Assembly (NCBI GenBank): GCA_965228785.1
Contig: CBDDIF010000002.1
Coordinates: 1,516,361-1,580,360 of the forward strand
Reading direction: 5' to 3'
DNA from: Hoeflea sp.
Lineage (GTDB): Bacteria; Pseudomonadota; Alphaproteobacteria; Rhizobiales; Rhizobiaceae
DNA length: 64,000 nucleotides
The notes under the pieces were generated by a model. It searched no databases. It was not told the origin of the DNA and worked only from the letters and a program-made list of their open reading frames with translations. Both the position numbers and the translations under genes were made by a program. This document shows positions 11,442 to 14,819 of this stretch, one piece after another; position 1 is the first letter of the stretch; each line of letters starts with the position of its first letter.

Positions 11442-12638
11442 TTACGGTGCCTGGACGATGCCTTCTCCGACATCTTCACGTTCGGCAGAGGCTACCAGTG
11501 CGCTACGGTCTGCGGTCGCCAGCAACTGGCCGGAAAGCACATCGCTGCGGATCCCTCCGCTTTCATCAAGCTGCTTCTGAGCCCAAAGGGCCGCAACACC
11601 GGCGACGTGCGGTGTGGCCATGCTGGTGCCACTCATACCGGTCAGGCCACCGCCGACCGCAGCGGAGATAACGTTGACGCCAGGGCCCGAAAGGTTGCAT
11701 TGCGTGTTGGAAAAACGAGCCACGTCATGGCCGCTTGATCCGCCCTCTGACAGCGCGCCGACAGACAAGATTCCGGTTCCGGCAGCAGGCGGGCTCACCG
11801 CAATTTCGAATTGCGGTCGTTCTGACTCATTGCCCGAGGCTGCAACGATCAGAGTGGCTTCCTGAATGGCATTCTGGCTTACGAGCAGATCCGCCAGGCG
11901 CGAGAACAGGTTGACATTCGCACGGTATTGCTCGAGCGCGATCGAAGTCGCCGGTTCTACTTGAAAGCCCGCGTCAACCAACTGTTTGACAAATCCGGGA
12001 AAATCGATCCCAAGGGACATCGAAACCACATTGGCGCCTTCGCGAACCGACCACTGAATGGCCTCGACCAGTTTGGCCGACGATCCACCTCCCTGCCCCA
12101 ATACTTTCCCTATGATAGCGTCGGTAACGCCGGTCGCCACGCCGATGCGCAATCCATTGACATCGCGACCAAAAATCGTTCCGGCGCAGTGAGTGCCGTG
12201 GCCATGCTGATCGTCATCGCCCTCGGCCGTGAAGTTCTTGCGGGTCAGATTGACACCGTTGAATGCTGGATGGTTCGGGTCAATTCCGGTATCGAGCACC
12301 GCGACCTTGATGCCCTCGCCATCAAACTGGGATTGAGGCGCTCCGACAGCTTGCACGCCCCAGGTCGCTCCTCCCGCCAGCGCGCTGGCGTCCGGTGGCG
12401 TCACATCCATTGGCTCAATCAATTGCAGCGGCATCGGTGCCGCTATTGCCTTTGTGCGGGGATCGCGGCGCAGATCGTCTCGTTCTGCCTTCGAAAGCGG
12501 CGCCACGGAAATGTCCAGCGTTTCCATGTTGGAGCTTGTGCTCGCACCAAGCGCCTCTGCCCCGGGCATGCCTAGATTGCCGGCCTCCGGAACGAACAGT
12601 CTTTCGGATCTCAATACGATAAAGTCCTGCTGCGTCAT
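11442..12638 (-). CDS. S8 family serine peptidase (subtilase) without a recognisable signal peptide
   Basis: Catalytic triad motifs VAVLDTGID (Asp), HGHGTHCAGTI (His) and GTSMATPHVAG (Ser). I chose the ATG at 12638 (MTQQDFIVLRSE..) because GGAGAG lies 4 nt upstream. Alternative starts are 12650 and 12692. Confidence 0.85.
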   Translation of the reverse strand: MTQQDFIVLRSERLFVPEAGNLGMPGAEALGASTSSNMETLDISVAPLSKAERDDLRRDPRTKAIAAPMPLQLIEPMDVTPPDASALAGGATWGVQAVGAPQSQFDGEGIKVAVLDTGIDPNHPAFNGVNLTRKNFTAEGDDDQHGHGTHCAGTIFGRDVNGLRIGVATGVTDAIIGKVLGQGGGSSAKLVEAIQWSVREGANVVSMSLGIDFPGFVKQLVDAGFQVEPATSIALEQYRANVNLFSRLADLLVSQNAIQEATLIVAASGNESERPQFEIAVSPPAAGTGILSVGALSEGGSSGHDVARFSNTQCNLSGPGVNVISAAVGGGLTGMSGTSMATPHVAGVAALWAQKQLDESGGIRSDVLSGQLLATADRSALVASAEREDVGEGIVQAP

Positions 12639-12801
12639 TTGGCTCTCCATCTCTGTATATTCGACTGAAGTTGCAGTGTTGGCCGGCCCCATCGGCCGCG
12701 GCCCCGTCTTGGGTGCCGCATTTTCGAACGATAGCGCGCAACGCTGTCGGACTATGTGAGTTTAGCCACATCAAAAGAAAAATGGTCACAGGCGACAAAT
12801 C

Positions 12802-12830
12802 GGTTGCTGTTTGCAACCGGAGCGTATAAA
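12802..12830 (+). promoter_or_regulatory. Promoter-like element with inverted repeat GGTTGC-N5-GCAACC, upstream of Y-RNA-like modules a+b
   Basis: ggttgctgtttgcaacc (12802-12818) overlaps a -35-like TTGCTG/GTTGCT. TATAAA at 12825-12830 follows at a 15-17 nt spacing. Module a begins about 11 nt after the -10. Confidence 0.4.
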
Positions 12831-12840
12831 CACCGCGCCT

Positions 12841-12898
12841 CCATTCGTGGCGAGGCGAAAGCTCCGGTTGAAACCGCTGTCAGCTTGTTCCCGAGTGG
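12841..12898 (+). ncRNA. Small Y-RNA-like stem-loop module a
   Basis: Closing helix CCATTCG/CGAGTGG, flanked by 5' TGGCGAGG and 3' TGTTCC, the signature shared by all five modules. Inner helix AAGCT/AGCTT. The loop contains GGTTGAAACC, as module c does. Confidence 0.5.
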
Positions 12899-12905
12899 CC
12901 CACAG

Positions 12906-13041
12906 CCGCAGGCGTGGCGTAGAACACGGTTACTTCGACTGTGAATCGAGAGGTTGTCGGTTCGAGCCCGACCCGGCCTGCCATGGGCCGGTAGCTCAAT
13001 TGGATAGAGCGCTTTACCGGTTCGCCTGTTCCCGCCTGCGG
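12906..13041 (+). ncRNA. yrlA: YrlA-like Y RNA (module b) with circularly permuted tRNA-like domain
   Basis: Perfect 9-bp closing helix CCGCAGGCG/CGCCTGCGG. T arm GTCGG-TTCGAGC-CCGAC at 12956-12972. 7-bp acceptor stem 12973-12979/12985-12991 with G-CCA retained in the capping loop. U8-A9 then D arm GCTC-AATTGGAT-AGAGC (12994-13010). Lies on the same strand upstream of the TROVE gene. Confidence 0.7.
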
Positions 13042-13105
13042 TGAGCCAACTCCATTCGTTCTGAGTTTGCTTCAGCCAGTCGAGCGGAATCTTTTTTCAT
13101 TTTCT

Positions 13106-13137
13106 ATGTTGCAATTTGCAACATAGGCAGATACATA
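13106..13137 (+). promoter_or_regulatory. Promoter-like TTGCAA-N17-TACATA embedded in a 19-nt palindrome, upstream of modules c+d
   Basis: atgttgcaa-t-ttgcaacat perfect 9-1-9 inverted repeat at 13106-13124. -35 TTGCAA at 13109-13114 and -10 TACATA at 13132-13137. A T-run at 13092-13097 just upstream may end the a+b transcript. Confidence 0.45.
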
Positions 13138-13145
13138 GCGCTCCG

Positions 13146-13216
13146 CCAATCGTGGTGAAGATGACGGTTACTTCATTCAGATTGAAACCAGACCGTCATC
13201 GCCTGTCCCCGAATGG
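13146..13216 (+). ncRNA. Small Y-RNA-like stem-loop module c (paralog of module a)
   Basis: Closing helix CCAATCG/CGAATGG (one mismatch), flanked by 5' TGGTGAAG and 3' TGTCCC. GGTG/CGCC mini-helix. 8-bp helix ATGACGGT/ACCGTCAT. The loop contains TACTTC and GATTGAAACC. Confidence 0.5.
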
Positions 13217-13221
13217 TTCAA

Positions 13222-13360
13222 GACCGCAGGCGTGGCGCAGATCGCAGATACTTCTTAATCTGTGGTCGCGGGTTCGAATCCCGCCGCTCCGAAAGGAGTG
13301 TAGCTCAGCCCGGTAGAGCAGCAGCACCCAAACTGTGGTCGCCTGTTCCCGCCTGCGGTC
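13222..13360 (+). ncRNA. yrlA: YrlA-like Y RNA (module d) with circularly permuted tRNA-like domain
   Basis: Perfect 11-bp closing helix GACCGCAGGCG/CGCCTGCGGTC. T arm GCGGG-TTCGAAT-CCCGC at 13268-13284. Acceptor-like stem CGCTCC/GGAGTG capped by a GAAA tetraloop (13285-13300). U8-A9 then D arm GCTC-AGCCCGGT-AGAGC (13301-13319). Confidence 0.7.
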
Positions 13361-13379
13361 CTGCCTTTTGTCGCATCCG

Positions 13380-13488
13380 CCCGTCCGGCGAGCGCGTGGC
13401 GTAGAAAACGGATACTTCGGTCATCCTTTAGCGGACGGGGTTCAACTCCCCAAGCCGTTTTCGAATGTTCCCGCGTTCGCCCGACGGG
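13380..13488 (+). ncRNA. Y-RNA-like module e (long closing helix, T-arm-like hairpin only)
   Basis: 17-position closing helix 13380-13396/13472-13488 with one C-C mismatch and one G-U. Same 5' TGGCGTAG and 3' TGTTCC signature. Inner helix GAAAACGG/CCGTTTTC. T-arm-like GGGG-TTCAACT-CCCC at 13437-13451. Ends 32 nt before the rsr ATG. Confidence 0.55.
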
Positions 13489-13520
13489 TCGGAAGCAATG
13501 AGTAACGATGGAGAAGAACG

Positions 13521-14819
13521 ATGCGCCTGAACATCGCGTCCCGCATTCCCGTCCGCCGCACCCATCAAGGTGCGCCGGCCAAGCACATCTCGCCGGAGGC
13601 GGCTCTTCGCCGCTCGGTTCTGTCGTGCCTGCTGTGGGAGAACGAGTTCTATGAGGACGGCCAGCACATCGCTGACCGTATCATCGAGCACGCCGCAGCG
13701 GTCGATCGCGAAACCGCATCGGCGCTGGCTGTGGAAGCACGTACCGTTTTCGGACTGCGCCACGCGCCGCTGATGCTGCTTCTCGACCTGATCCGCCGCG
13801 GCGGACCGGGCGTTGCGGACACAATCGCCGAAACCATCCGACGCGCCGACGAGATCACCGAACTGGTAGCGCTCTACTGGCGTGACGGCAAGCGGCCCTT
13901 GTCCAAGCAGATGAAGCTTGGATTGGCGAAGGCGTTCGGGAAGTTCTCCGAATACCAGCTGGCCAAGTACGACCGCGAAGGTCCGGTGCGGCTGCGCGAC
14001 GTGATGTTCCTCACCCACGCAAAGCCGCGGGATGCGGAACAGGCAGCACTGTTCATGCGGGTCGCGGACCGGTCGCTGAAGACTCCGGACACCTGGGAGG
14101 TCGCACTGTCGACCGGTCAGGACAAGAAGGCGTCATTCGAACGGCTGCTTCGCGAGGGCAAGCTCGGATATCTCGCCCTGCTGCGCAACCTGCGCAACAT
14201 GGCCGAGGCTGGCTGCGACCTGGAACTGGTCAAGGACGCCATCGTTGCCCGCAAAGGCGCCGACCTGGTCTTTCCGTTCCGCTACGTCGCTGCGGCCCGT
14301 GCCTGCCCGCAGCTCGAACCGGTCATAGACCAGGCGCTGTGTGAGGCCATTGCGTCAGCTCCACGGCTGACCGGCCGCACCATCGTGCTGGTCGACGTGT
14401 CCGGATCGATGAACTGCCGGCTGTCGGGGCGTTCCGACCTGACGCGAATGGACGCCGCCGCTGCACTGGCTTCGATCCTGCACGGCGAGCTTCGCCTGTT
14501 CACCTTTTCCACAGATGTGGTGGAAGTTCCGCCGCGGCGCGGCATGGCAGGCGTCGATGCGGTGGTGCAATCGCAACCACACCTGGGTACGCGGCTCGGC
14601 GCCGCGGTCAAGAAGGTGAACCGCCTGCCGCATGATCGGTTGATCGTCATTACCGACGAGCAGTCTCATGATGCGGTGCCGGACCCGAAGGCCGGACGAG
14701 CCTACATGATCAACGTCGGCTCCTACCGGAACGGCGTTGGTTATGGCCGCTGGACCCACATCGATGGGTTCTCGGAAGCCGTCATCCGCTTCATCACCGA
14801 GGTCGAGAATGACCGGTGA
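13521..14819 (+). CDS. rsr: Ro60-related protein (Rsr): TROVE domain plus vWA domain with MIDAS motif
   Basis: Matches Ro60 hallmarks: LGYLALLRNLRNM (cf. ALLRNL), FPFRYVAAA, IVLVDVSGSM (DxSxS MIDAS), LIVITDEQSH and a C-terminal GFSEAVIRFI. GGAGAAG RBS 6 nt upstream of the ATG. 432 aa. Confidence 0.85.
   Translation: MRLNIASRIPVRRTHQGAPAKHISPEAALRRSVLSCLLWENEFYEDGQHIADRIIEHAAAVDRETASALAVEARTVFGLRHAPLMLLLDLIRRGGPGVADTIAETIRRADEITELVALYWRDGKRPLSKQMKLGLAKAFGKFSEYQLAKYDREGPVRLRDVMFLTHAKPRDAEQAALFMRVADRSLKTPDTWEVALSTGQDKKASFERLLREGKLGYLALLRNLRNMAEAGCDLELVKDAIVARKGADLVFPFRYVAAARACPQLEPVIDQALCEAIASAPRLTGRTIVLVDVSGSMNCRLSGRSDLTRMDAAAALASILHGELRLFTFSTDVVEVPPRRGMAGVDAVVQSQPHLGTRLGAAVKKVNRLPHDRLIVITDEQSHDAVPDPKAGRAYMINVGSYRNGVGYGRWTHIDGFSEAVIRFITEVENDR

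Follow-up and report, generated by a model that had tools for sequence, protein, structure and literature searches.

The DNA analysed here, called the window in the following, comprises 64,000 nt from Hoeflea sp. (assembly GCA_965228785.1, contig CBDDIF010000002.1, positions 1,516,361-1,580,360, forward strand) and carries on its + strand the gene rsr (13521..14819), which encodes a Ro60 orthologue with TROVE and VWA domains. The rsr product shares 98% identity with a Hoeflea sp. protein and matches Pfam TROVE with an E value of 8.6e-11; a match to VWA_2 stays below the cutoff (E 3.2e-4, 21.7 bits, cutoff 27) and is accompanied by one to VWA_CoxE. The 830-nt spacer 5' of rsr encodes five Y-RNA-like modules (a-e), all on the same strand as rsr. 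Module a (12838..12902; repeat families D1-D4; weak fold, z -0.9) is a plain Y-RNA-like hairpin that has the Ro-motif internal loop in common with the others and lacks a tRNA-like domain. Its paralogue, module c (13143..13218; fold z -3.4), is again a plain Y-RNA-like hairpin with sequences of the repeat families. In module e (13386..13484; z -2.5), also a Y-RNA-like hairpin, the sole tRNA-like part is a T-arm-like stem-loop, GGGG-UUCAACU-CCCC. Modules b (12906..13042) and d (13224..13360), both on the + strand, have their 3' ends 479 and 161 nt, respectively, before the rsr start (13521), that is on the same strand as a Ro60/TROVE gene and within the distance of about 4 kb used here for assignment to the YrlA class. 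Neither rtcB nor rtcBA/rtcR adjoins rsr at this locus. Since simple scans for sigma-70 promoters and intrinsic terminators between 12600 and 13600 found none, we can only infer the transcription units.

Module b is a complete YrlA-like Y RNA in which a terminal Y stem is combined with a permuted tRNA-like domain that keeps all four tRNA arms. Its 5' strand contains GUGGCGUAG (12914..12922), a variant version of the Ro60-binding motif of the 5' strand located opposite UGUUCCC (13027-13033). This Ro-motif block is found in all five modules and in nearly all related modules, and its strongly conserved versions (GGCGUAGA in b, GGCGCAGA in d and GGUGAAGA in c) are related to the published 5' Ro-binding motif GNCGAAN0-1G (Chen 2014, PMC4201824) without matching it exactly; by analogy with that study, the Ro-motif stems would be expected to bind Rsr. 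Further downstream, the hairpin UUCGA-CUGUGAA-UCGAG (12934..12950), which corresponds to the 'V' stem-loop of Chen 2014, has the geometry of an anticodon arm, with 5 bp and a 7-nt loop of the form C-U-N-N-N-A-A, and its stem covaries over loci (UUCGC/GCGGG, UUCGA/UCGAG, UUCGG/CCGGG, UUCUC/GAGAG, UUCGU/ACGAC). The segment 12951..12972 comprises the variable region AGGUU, whose U48 pairs with A15, and the T arm GTCGG-TTCGAGC-CCGAC (GUCGG-UUCGAGC-CCGAC in the RNA; 12956-12972). It is followed by the acceptor 3' strand CCGGCCT (positions 66-72; 12973-12979), a cap made of G73 (12980), C74 C75 A76 (12981-12983) and a single linker T, or U(-1) (12984), and the acceptor 5' strand GGGCCGG (positions 1-7; 12985-12991), so that the acceptor stem consists of G1.U72 and six Watson-Crick pairs. 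TA (U8 A9; 12992-12993) then leads into the D arm GCTC-AATTGGATA-GAGC (GCUC-AAUUGGAUA-GAGC in the RNA; 12994-13010), in which A14, G18G19 and A21 are present. An earlier note on this DNA had listed the T arm, both acceptor strands, the G-CCA, the linker, U8-A9 and the D arm, and all of these were confirmed base for base. The acceptor hairpin (12973..12991) can alternatively be read as an 8-bp stem that includes G73.U(-1) and closes with a CCA triloop. In a constrained fold of b, CCGCAGGCG pairs with CGCCUGCGG to form the terminal stem, and GAAC(A)CGGU with ACCGGUUC to form the closing stem; for b alone, the minimum-free-energy fold is not a cloverleaf and is favoured over the constrained cloverleaf by 4.4 kcal/mol.

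In conventional order, ARAGORN finds 0 tRNA genes in the whole 64-kb window. The earlier note had proposed a search in permuted order, and once b was un-permuted in silico ARAGORN indeed called a 77-nt tRNA, tRNA-His(GUG), accepting the 12934..12950 hairpin as the anticodon arm. After un-permutation, tRNAs of 75-77 nt were called in 7/7 b-type modules. The same note took b to be opened in the anticodon region; instead, the hairpin with its 5 bp and 7-nt loop is intact, and the un-permutation analysis places the permutation point between positions 26 and 27. Three other readings of b were discarded. A conventional cloverleaf, in which the 5' Y strand would pair with CCGGCCU, was rejected because only 5/7 acceptor pairs form, because orthologues with other acceptors do not support it (4/7 pairs by eye in L021b, for example), and because the corresponding Rfam tRNA match at 12910-12980 reaches 24.6 bits, under the gathering score of 29. 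The canonical long-range 'anticodon stem' of YrlA (27-31/39-43) would have 3-4/5 pairs in b, compared with 5/5 covarying pairs in the local hairpin. The GCCUGC repeat (12976-12981 and 13035-13040), considered as a possible vestige of a tRNA dimer with swapped domains, is not conserved in the related loci L005 and L026 and was therefore treated as a chance occurrence. At seven related loci, ARAGORN reports similar modules as 'tRNAs' of conventional order.

As had been claimed, module d has the same T-acceptor-D order, with a T arm at 13268-13284, an acceptor hairpin CGCTCC-GAAA-GGAGTG (13285-13300; 6 bp, GAAA tetraloop) devoid of CCA, and a D arm at 13303-13319. Its minimum-free-energy fold is a cloverleaf with all three arms (-67.2 kcal/mol, z -4.8). 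With its 6-bp acceptor stem and GAAA cap, d is the ordinary closed YrlA form. The ends of b and d are identical over the first 14 nt (CCGCAGGCGTGGCG), in agreement with the earlier description, and over the last 21 nt (TCGCCTGTTCCCGCCTGCGGT), one more than the 20 stated there. The paired changes by which the T and acceptor stems of b and d were said to differ are real, and the Levitt pair changes as well, from A15-U48 in b to G15-C48 in d.

Modules b and d are almost certainly YrlA-class Y RNAs, a class whose traits include Rsr binding and modification by TruB (psi55) and DusA (D). In E-value mode, the Rfam model for YrlA (RF02553) matched b with 44.5 bits (E 2.1e-8) and d with 49.5 bits (E 7.5e-10), scores that lie below its gathering score of 69 bits with a shortfall arising mostly from stems outside the tRNA-like core; at gathering thresholds, Rfam returned nothing in the whole 64-kb window. 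A covariance model of the T-acceptor-D core gave 54.0 bits for b (E about 3e-12) and 53.1 bits for d (E about 5e-12), and of its 142 matches in 77 rsr loci, almost every one precedes rsr in the same orientation. When 139 distinct related modules were aligned, 98.9% of cells paired and 10/11 pairs showed double changes, the alignment being fitted to the model. Family-wide, the 15-48 Levitt pair covaries as well (G-C in 61/90, A-U in 18/90). Conservation in related rsr loci had been suggested as a check, and the T, acceptor and D elements are kept there with covariation; the lineages with compensatory changes span Hoeflea, Acidobacteriota, Clostridia and phages, and Ro-motif stems flank the modules. 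The view of b and d as permuted tRNA-like domains is thereby upheld by Rfam, by the core model and by the adjoining rsr.

Compared with known YrlA RNAs (RF02553; S. Typhimurium YrlA, Chen 2014; crystal structure, Wang 2018), b and d share the linkage to rsr on the same strand, a terminal stem with a Ro motif, a near-invariant T arm (GGUUCGAAUCC) and D arm (UAGCUCAG..GGUAGAGC), the order T-acceptor-D, a capped acceptor stem, the 'V' stem-loop 5' of T and the Levitt 15-48 covariation. They differ from RF02553-type YrlA in having GGCGUAGA/GGCGCAGA rather than GNCGAAN0-1G as Ro motif and in scoring under the gathering threshold, and the locus differs in having five tandem modules rather than two and an rsr that adjoins neither rtcBA nor rtcR. 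The T-acceptor-D architecture, the description of YrlA as a circularly permuted tRNA (Chen 2014, PMC4201824; Wang 2018, bioRxiv 10.1101/312249) and the dimeric-tRNA origin, a model that appears in Wang 2018 (bioRxiv 10.1101/312249) with credit to Sim & Wolin 2018, are known already. Unlike known YrlA, b encodes N73-CCA in its cap. This cap, in which a 7-bp stem is followed by G73-CCA and U(-1), goes beyond what is given in Chen 2014 and Wang 2018.

Modules from Mesorhizobium, Hyphomicrobiaceae, Rhizobium phages and Caulobacter phages also contain NCCA, and its register matches that of b, exactly 8 nt after the T stem. The Rsr proteins of the NCCA-bearing lineages are only 30-63% identical, and the acceptor 3' strands are wholly different by lineage (CCGGCCU, CAGGUCU, CCGCCCG, UCCCGGC, UCCCGAC, UCCUCCG, CGCGUCC); all 7 acceptor pairs covary in the ten modules tabulated, nine with CCA and the L003 orthologue with UCA. 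Among genomic modules, NCCA occupies positions 73-76 in 7/84 distinct caps (naive P 3e-4), and this is the sole offset at which CCA piles up. An unselected metagenome sample yielded NCCA in 14/119 caps (P 5.5e-9). The enrichment is about 8-fold over expectation and confined to a single offset. Within the metagenome sample, CCA is the top triplet at 74-76 of caps with a 7/7 stem (12 cases, compared with <=4 for any other triplet), and NCCA goes with the 7-bp register (12/14 vs 47/105, Fisher P 0.004). The spacers that follow the CCA measure 0-30 nt, and the longest holds a hairpin of its own; it occurs in Caulobacter phage CcrPW, where a 7-bp stem and A73-CCA precede a 30-nt spacer resembling a real trailer plus leader. 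Orthologues of b exist in the related loci L001, L002, L003, L004 and L005, and close relatives are partly decayed, with a C72.A1 mismatch in L002 and UCA in place of CCA in L003. The residue U(-1) was found in 10/10 cases of the first sample and in just 6/12 of the metagenome sample. The persistence of the NCCA register in distant lineages with replaced stems, together with its over-representation in the metagenome, points to selection and not to slow decay, so that, as judged from sequence comparison, the NCCA of the b cap is apparently a recurrent feature selected for a function rather than a passive relic.

We propose that b represents a recurrent subclass in which the cap mimics a pre-tRNA junction, with a 7-bp acceptor stem, N73, an encoded CCA, a short spacer and position +1. 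RNase P would cleave the cap at +1 or one position 5' of it, any spacer would be trimmed afterwards, and b would persist in nicked form, as a Y RNA in two pieces; its tRNA-like domain would then have a genuine free CCA-3' end, and the acceptor stem and Y stem, along with tRNA tertiary contacts, would hold the halves to each other. The direct precedent for such a mechanism is YrlA of Mycobacterium smegmatis, which resembles b in having a 7-bp acceptor stem and in lying upstream of rsr without RtcR control; RNase P cuts this RNA in vitro and in vivo, and the processed form carries a CCA end after CA addition (Chen 2014, PMC4201824; Wang 2018, bioRxiv 10.1101/312249). As far as the published description allows comparison, in M. 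smegmatis CA is added post-transcriptionally after nibbling, whereas for b the genome already encodes the complete CCA, with one U after it. The seven-bp acceptor stem that characterizes the M. smegmatis type is present in b (G1.U72 plus six Watson-Crick pairs), whereas d falls outside this RNase P type because its acceptor stem has only 6 bp. We judge opening of the b cap by RNase P to fall just short of probable. In the complex of RNase P with tRNA, the L15 loop contacts CCA. It is doubtful that the tethered CCA of b, presented as just a 5-nt loop or as a CCA triloop on an 8-bp stem, could reach this loop. Counted against the explanation are also the decay in L002 and L003, the variability of U(-1), the Rfam scores below gathering and the non-cloverleaf minimum-free-energy fold of b. 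Taken as a whole, the explanation, in which both modules are YrlA-class Y RNAs and b has its cap opened to give a two-piece RNA with a free CCA end, seems to us evenly poised; that end may then be put to some use.

A second system with a similar arrangement is the two-piece tmRNA from circularly permuted ssrA genes of alphaproteobacteria, which Keiler, Shapiro & Williams reportedly described in 2000. Like b, it has a permuted tRNA-like domain in which the acceptor 3' strand and CCA lie 5' of the 5' strand in one precursor; the precursor is cut into two base-paired chains with a functional CCA end, and all this takes place in the bacterial class to which the host of b belongs. It differs from b in belonging to another RNA family and in having SmpB and the ribosome, not Ro60, as partners. 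Also, the alanine identity of tmRNA is proven (G3.U70), whereas none was recognised in b.

Alternatively, the cap may stay closed, and the NCCA loop on its 7-8-bp stem could act without cleavage as a recognition element. It might be read by a CCA-recognising protein, for instance the CCA-adding enzyme or an exonuclease, or else by RNA, one example being the GUGG of the Ro motif, the complement of CCAU. Pairing of N73 with N(-1) is possible in 10/14 metagenomic and 8/10 genomic caps; it is enriched, gives an 8-bp stem with a CCA-containing loop and fits a stable closed hairpin equally well as tRNA-His-like cleavage. 'CCA' itself is among the commonest exact loops of the metagenome sample, GCCAU (12980-12984) is complementary to GUGGC (12914-12918), and most YrlA RNAs are thought to retain closed acceptor loops (Wang 2018, bioRxiv 10.1101/312249). 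However, a fixed loop motif would not tolerate spacers of 0 to 30 nt, the longest with its own hairpin, and two traits, the strict register of 8 nt past the T stem and the association with a 7-bp stem, are typical of a tRNA end and not of a loop motif. The L-shaped geometry of tRNA sets the acceptor end away from the Y stem, and a contact between the two in cis would be geometrically unlikely. On balance, we consider a permanently closed cap unlikely.

According to the earlier note, the G-CCA of b is a neutral leftover of a tandem-tRNA ancestor and b is less decayed, or less derived, than d. The layout is an exact match to a tRNA 3'-end/5'-end junction, and the tRNA-Met/tRNA-Arg and tRNA-Gln/tRNA-Ile junctions of phage Atuin, with NCCA and a 1-nt spacer, match the core model; b has all four arms, the CCA or the 1-72 pair is lost in some close relatives, and a dimeric-tRNA origin is already in the literature. 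While the proposed descent from such a junction agrees with the layout, the status of a relic, like that of b as less derived than d, is hard to square with the data. A neutral tetranucleotide would not outlast the turnover of all seven flanking pairs, would not be expected to recur across lineages with such divergent Rsr proteins, and would not be enriched about 8-fold at one offset. Moreover, at true tRNA-tRNA junctions the two flanking 7-mers pair only at chance level (mode 3-4 of 7); a pattern scan of viral contigs, which mostly returned true tRNA-array junctions, served solely as a control. We therefore regard a neutral leftover as quite improbable.

Circularly permuted tRNA genes exist in Cyanidioschyzon merolae and others (Soma 2007, as reported in Wang 2018, bioRxiv 10.1101/312249), and like b they have the order 3' half, acceptor junction, 5' half, with an acceptor that is first closed and then opened by RNase P/Z. 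If b were such a gene, its Y stem would be excised, the ends ligated and the acceptor opened to give a decoding tRNA, and the tRNA-His(GUG) call after un-permutation agrees with this reading. In contrast to permuted tRNA genes, the 'anticodon' is not conserved among close orthologues of b (GUG in the window, GUU in L001, GUA in L002, CCU in L005, and elsewhere GAU, CAU or 6-nt loops), although orthologues with differing 'anticodons' share the same or a near-identical acceptor stem, and the permutation point 26/27 is flanked by a putative Ro60-binding stem. Permuted tRNA genes give rise to decoding tRNAs via a circular intermediate and the eukaryal/archaeal splicing endonuclease, which to our knowledge is absent from bacteria, and rsr has no adjoining rtcB here, so that this reading is very improbable. 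Finally, we give next to no credence to the region being functionless, degraded remnants of ordinary tRNA genes, as might be read from the sub-threshold Rfam tRNA match at 12910-12980 and the conventional-order ARAGORN calls at the seven related loci, because the modules covary, being kept with compensatory changes in lineages as far apart as Hoeflea, Acidobacteriota, Clostridia and phages and always next to rsr, are flanked by conserved Ro-motif stems, and are not called as tRNAs in the window.

In practical terms, these RNAs escape Rfam thresholds and are in some cases mislabelled as tRNAs by tRNA finders and in GenBank records. Until now, the sole hint that the tRNA-like domain of YrlA can act as a real tRNA end came from one species, M. 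smegmatis. A recurrent, apparently selected YrlA class with an acceptor stem of tRNA length, a discriminator and a genome-encoded CCA makes this a family trait instead of a single-species curiosity, open to study in culturable alphaproteobacteria and phages. Because all four arms are kept, b-type modules also provide sequence-level support for the published descent of Y RNAs from dimeric tRNAs. The most far-reaching version of the RNase P reading, to which we assign a low probability, is that a widespread subclass of YrlA RNAs, which makes up about 12% of the GGUUACUUCG subtype and includes b, is matured by RNase P to two-piece RNAs and that the free encoded CCA end is then used. If true, the CCA end could be aminoacylated, or it could be engaged by EF-Tu, by the ribosome or by an aminoacyl-tRNA-dependent transferase; with a charged tRNA mimic attached to Ro60 in this way, RNA quality control would be tied to translation status, and b-type modules would be the clearest surviving intermediates between a tRNA dimer and a Y RNA.

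The spacer at 12693-13520 is bordered by a minus-strand subtilase gene (11442-12692) and a plus-strand gene (13521-14819), whose product matches the TROVE domain (E 8.6e-11) and, more weakly and below the cutoff, VWA-type models; these matches identify the predicted protein as the Rsr/Ro60 orthologue. Its nearest relatives are encoded in Hoeflea and Rhizobiaceae genomes (98, 97, 94 and 85% identity), followed by Mesorhizobium (76%). Five plus-strand modules within the spacer, a (12838-12902), b (12906-13042), c (13143-13218), d (13224-13360) and e (13386-13484), share a 5' block, (C)GUGG(C/U)G(U/A/C)AGA...(A/U)UACUUC, and a 3' block, CGCCUGU(U/C)CCC. Five tandem Y-RNA-like modules (12838-13484) precede one rsr; about two Y RNAs are found in characterised bacteria. 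The unit of palindrome, plain Y hairpin and YrlA-like module occurs twice (a+b and c+d), and module e has a T-arm-like stem-loop as its only tRNA-like part. The palindrome GTTGC(TG/AA)TTTGCAAC lies directly upstream of modules a (12803-12817) and c (13108-13122), with an A/T-rich hexamer after each copy (TATAAA or GATACA), and this combination could form a promoter or operator of two transcription units. A T-run is located at about 13090-13096, 3' of module b, and simple promoter and terminator scans of the module region found neither element.

ARAGORN reported no tRNA in the whole window and Rfam at gathering thresholds gave no match in it. In E-value mode, the Rfam YrlA model (RF02553; gathering score 69) aligned end to end with module d (49.5 bits, E 7.5e-10) and module b (44.5 bits, E 2.1e-8), and both are almost certainly Y RNAs of the YrlA class. 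All elements that the earlier note had listed for b and d were found where it had placed them. On the plus strand, b comprises a T arm GUCGG-UUCGAGC-CCGAC (12956-12972), the acceptor 3' strand CCGGCCU (12973-12979), a discriminator G (12980), CCA (12981-12983), a linker U (12984), the acceptor 5' strand GGGCCGG (12985-12991) followed by UA, and a D arm GCUC-AAUUGGAUA-GAGC (12994-13010). Similarly, d has a T arm (13268-13284), an acceptor hairpin CGCUCC-GAAA-GGAGUG (13285-13300) and a D arm (13303-13319), also on the plus strand. The two modules are identical over their first 14 and last 21 nt. Double changes set them apart at two pairs of the T stem and three of the acceptor stem, and these differences belong to a pattern seen across the family.

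From 40 modules we built a covariance model of the T-acceptor-D core and ran it on the window and 77 rsr loci of GTDB genomes. It gave 142 matches, about 90 of them strong and nearly all lying upstream of rsr and sharing its strand. In the model-fitted alignment 98.9% of cells pair (37-46% in slid controls), and both partners have changed in 10 of 11 pairs. The Levitt pair covaries independently of the model, with G15-C48 in 61/90 modules, among them d, and A15-U48 in 18/90, among them b. Together, alignment pairing and Levitt covariation leave the tRNA-like fold well supported. Module d has a minimum-free-energy fold (-67.2 kcal/mol, z -4.8) that places the three arms within a long terminal stem. 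The corresponding fold of b (-61.2 kcal/mol) contains no cloverleaf, and a cloverleaf-constrained fold, with the terminal stem CCGCAGGCG/CGCCUGCGG and the closing stem GAAC(A)CGGU/ACCGGUUC, lies 4.4 kcal/mol above it (-56.8). tRNAs commonly show a gap of this kind, tertiary contacts being unscored. In d, a direct repeat, AAUCUGUGGUCGC / AACUGUGGUCGC (13240-13267 and 13330-13343), offers GAUCGCAGAU two alternative partners, one in a local 10-bp hairpin that absorbs the variable region (minimum-free-energy fold) and one in a long-range YrlA-type stem (Rfam alignment); these modelled pairings may constitute a structural switch or be due to chance.

Much of this architecture is known. YrlA RNAs adjoin rsr in more than 250 bacteria and also occur in phages, there are at least two Y RNAs per species, and T, D, acceptor-like (AS) and V stem-loops, Levitt covariation and modification by TruB and DusA have been described (Chen 2014, PMC4201824). 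The YrlA of M. smegmatis, which has a 7-bp acceptor stem, is cleaved by RNase P in vitro and in vivo, whereupon its 5' half gains CA to give a CCA tail (Chen 2014, PMC4201824). A YrlA structure has been solved, and in the model of Sim and Wolin a dimeric tRNA transcript supplied the T arm from its first and the D arm from its second tRNA (Wang 2018, bioRxiv 10.1101/312249). Therefore, the main description and evolutionary inference of the earlier note are not new, and its interpretation is partly supported and mostly published before. What is new within the YrlA family, relative to these two papers, is the encoded, conserved N73-CCA cap together with a complete four-arm permuted tRNA; three reviews might mention CCA caps.

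Most caps (the acceptor-hairpin segments between T arm and D arm) in genome loci are 5-9-bp stems with GNRA or UUCG-type tetraloops. In the CCA-cap subclass, a 7-nt 3' strand is followed by a single nucleotide, by CCA and a short spacer, and then by the 7-nt 5' strand that complements the first. Its members are CCGGCCU-G-CCA-U-GGGCCGG (window and rsr loci L001 and L004), CAGGUCU-U-CCA-U-GGACCUG (Mesorhizobium, L005), CCGCCCG-G-CCA-U-CGGGCGG (Hyphomicrobiaceae, L026/L027/L029), UCCCGGC-G-CCA-AU-GCCGGGA and UCCCGAC-A-CCA-GU-GUCGGGG (first and second modules of L021), UCCCGGA-A-CCA-AU-GCCGGGG (L030) and, with a 1-72 mismatch, CCGGCCC-G-CCA-AU-AGGCCGG (L002); the L003 orthologue has G-UCA-AU. Upstream of phage rsr genes we found UCCUCCG-U-CCA-UCUAU-CGGAGGA in a YrlA-like module of Rhizobium phage RHph_TM21B and, in Caulobacter phage CcrPW, CGCGUCC-A-CCA-[30 nt]-GGGCGUG, whose 30-nt spacer ends in U(-1). 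These ten genomic and phage modules covary at all seven acceptor pairs and nine keep CCA. Of 84 distinct caps, seven have CCA starting at positions 74-76, offset 8 from the T stem (naive binomial P 3e-4, kinship ignored although the stems differ), and each other offset has it in at most three. The Rhizobium etli plasmid pRetIE4771c (L078, 4594-4779) carries two YrlA-like modules downstream of rsr, between rsr and rtcB, one with a 7-bp acceptor stem and the loop UCCCAUUUCAC, a near-miss to NCCA. With its divergent rtcR, this arrangement is Salmonella-like, whereas Hoeflea-type loci have the modules upstream of rsr and lack rtc genes.

Metagenome contigs were scanned for GGTTACTTCG-N17-21-GGTTCGA-N20-50-TAGCTCA, a pattern that is silent on the cap and so avoids selection on CCA. 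An Rsr match was present in the fetched DNA of 81/120 loci, the remainder being mostly short contigs. NCCA occupied positions 73-76 in 14/119 distinct caps (about 1.8 expected; naive P 5.5e-9, kinship ignored), with spacers of 0-11 nt after CCA, and the flanking 7-mers paired 7/7 in 12 of these 14 vs 47/105 other caps (Fisher P 0.004, kinship ignored). In the 7/7 register, CCA was the top triplet at 74-76 (12 cases; next 4). The adjoining Rsr proteins are only 30-63% identical to that of the window, and the trait therefore spans distant lineages. U at -1 was enriched yet variable (6/12), so that its 10/10 occurrence in the first sample is partly phylogenetic.

The core model also matched genuine junctions in a tRNA array adjoining rsr in Arthrobacter phage Atuin (tRNA-Met/tRNA-Arg and tRNA-Gln/tRNA-Ile, each with NCCA and a 1-nt spacer). 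In a viral-contig scan requiring CCA, the flanking 7-mers of 142 junctions paired at chance level (mode 3-4/7; 7/7 in two), which marks the complementarity of the b cap as an extra feature: its sequence combines a tRNA-junction layout with pairing absent from real junctions. Two IMG/VR viral contigs (L117, 515-575; L141, 6372-6418) hold a T arm, 7-nt strand, NCCA, spacer (22 and 8 nt, respectively), second 7-nt strand complementary to the first at every position, and D arm; the DNA fetched around them gave no Rsr match, and they may be permuted tRNA-like elements outside the rsr context.

NCCA is enriched, keeps a strict register, goes with a 7-bp stem and tolerates long spacers, and M. smegmatis offers a precedent; on these grounds we tentatively favor as the most likely reading that RNase P opens the b cap. 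This would yield an RNA in two pieces, one of them ending in a free, encoded CCA. In tRNA-His, -1 pairs with 73 and RNase P cleaves one position upstream; in b, if cleavage is of this kind, one cut after A12983 would give exactly CCA-3'OH. Pairing of N73 with the nucleotide just 5' of +1 is possible in 10/14 metagenomic NCCA caps and 8/10 genomic or phage caps, so that many also admit a reading as an 8-bp stem whose loop contains CCA. This pairing and the small loop speak for a cap that stays closed as a recognition loop, a possibility we consider rather unlikely. The loop GCCAU (12980-12984) is complementary to GUGGC (12914-12918), which lies in the conserved, putative Ro-binding motif of b and of the other modules, and a loop-motif contact in trans would also help to explain why CCA(U) is conserved. 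Improbable is a neutral relic, given stem turnover in CCA caps and NCCA enrichment.

Between closing stem and T arm, b has the hairpin UUCGA-CUGUGAA-UCGAG (12934-12950) and then five nucleotides, AGGUU. It is the V stem-loop of Chen 2014, and its stem covaries across loci (UUCGC/GCGGG, UUCGG/CCGGG, UUCUC/GAGAG, UUCGU/ACGAC). Both its size (5 bp, 7-nt loop C-U-N-N-N-A-A) and its spacing from the T arm match an anticodon arm, and in 3D it may be either the variable arm (Chen 2014) or an anticodon arm. The earlier note had the tRNA opened in the anticodon region; we place the permutation point at 26/27. When position 26 (13011) was joined in silico to 12934, ARAGORN called a 77-nt tRNA-His(GUG), and all 7 b-type modules so treated gave a tRNA call. 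In the window (12939-12945) and related loci the loop consensus is C-U-N-N-N-A-A, often CUGUNAA. Since tRNA-guanine transglycosylase recognises the triplet U33-G34-U35, such loops might be queuosine-modification substrates. Conventional-order ARAGORN 'tRNAs' overlap Y-RNA modules (5' Y strand, V hairpin, T arm and acceptor 3' strand) in loci L003 (2428-2500), L019 (2697-2769), L021 (2570-2644), L044 (2848-2928), L046 (1934-2011), L048 (2637-2709) and L082 (2610-2679 and 2831-2898), and a 'tRNA-Thr' in the GenBank record of Xanthomonas phage 10KY502B overlaps a YrlA-like module just upstream of rsr; all are probably mis-annotations. The 'anticodon' varies even among close relatives (GUG, GUU, GUA, CCU, GAU, CAU and two 6-nt loops), which indicates that the hairpin does not decode, and with no conserved anticodon it is highly improbable that b encodes, in permuted order, a tRNA used in decoding. 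Covariation and rsr linkage contradict a reading of b and d as dead tRNA genes, which deserves practically no credence. The N73-CCA cap and the four-arm permuted tRNA lead to a clear, testable processing hypothesis.
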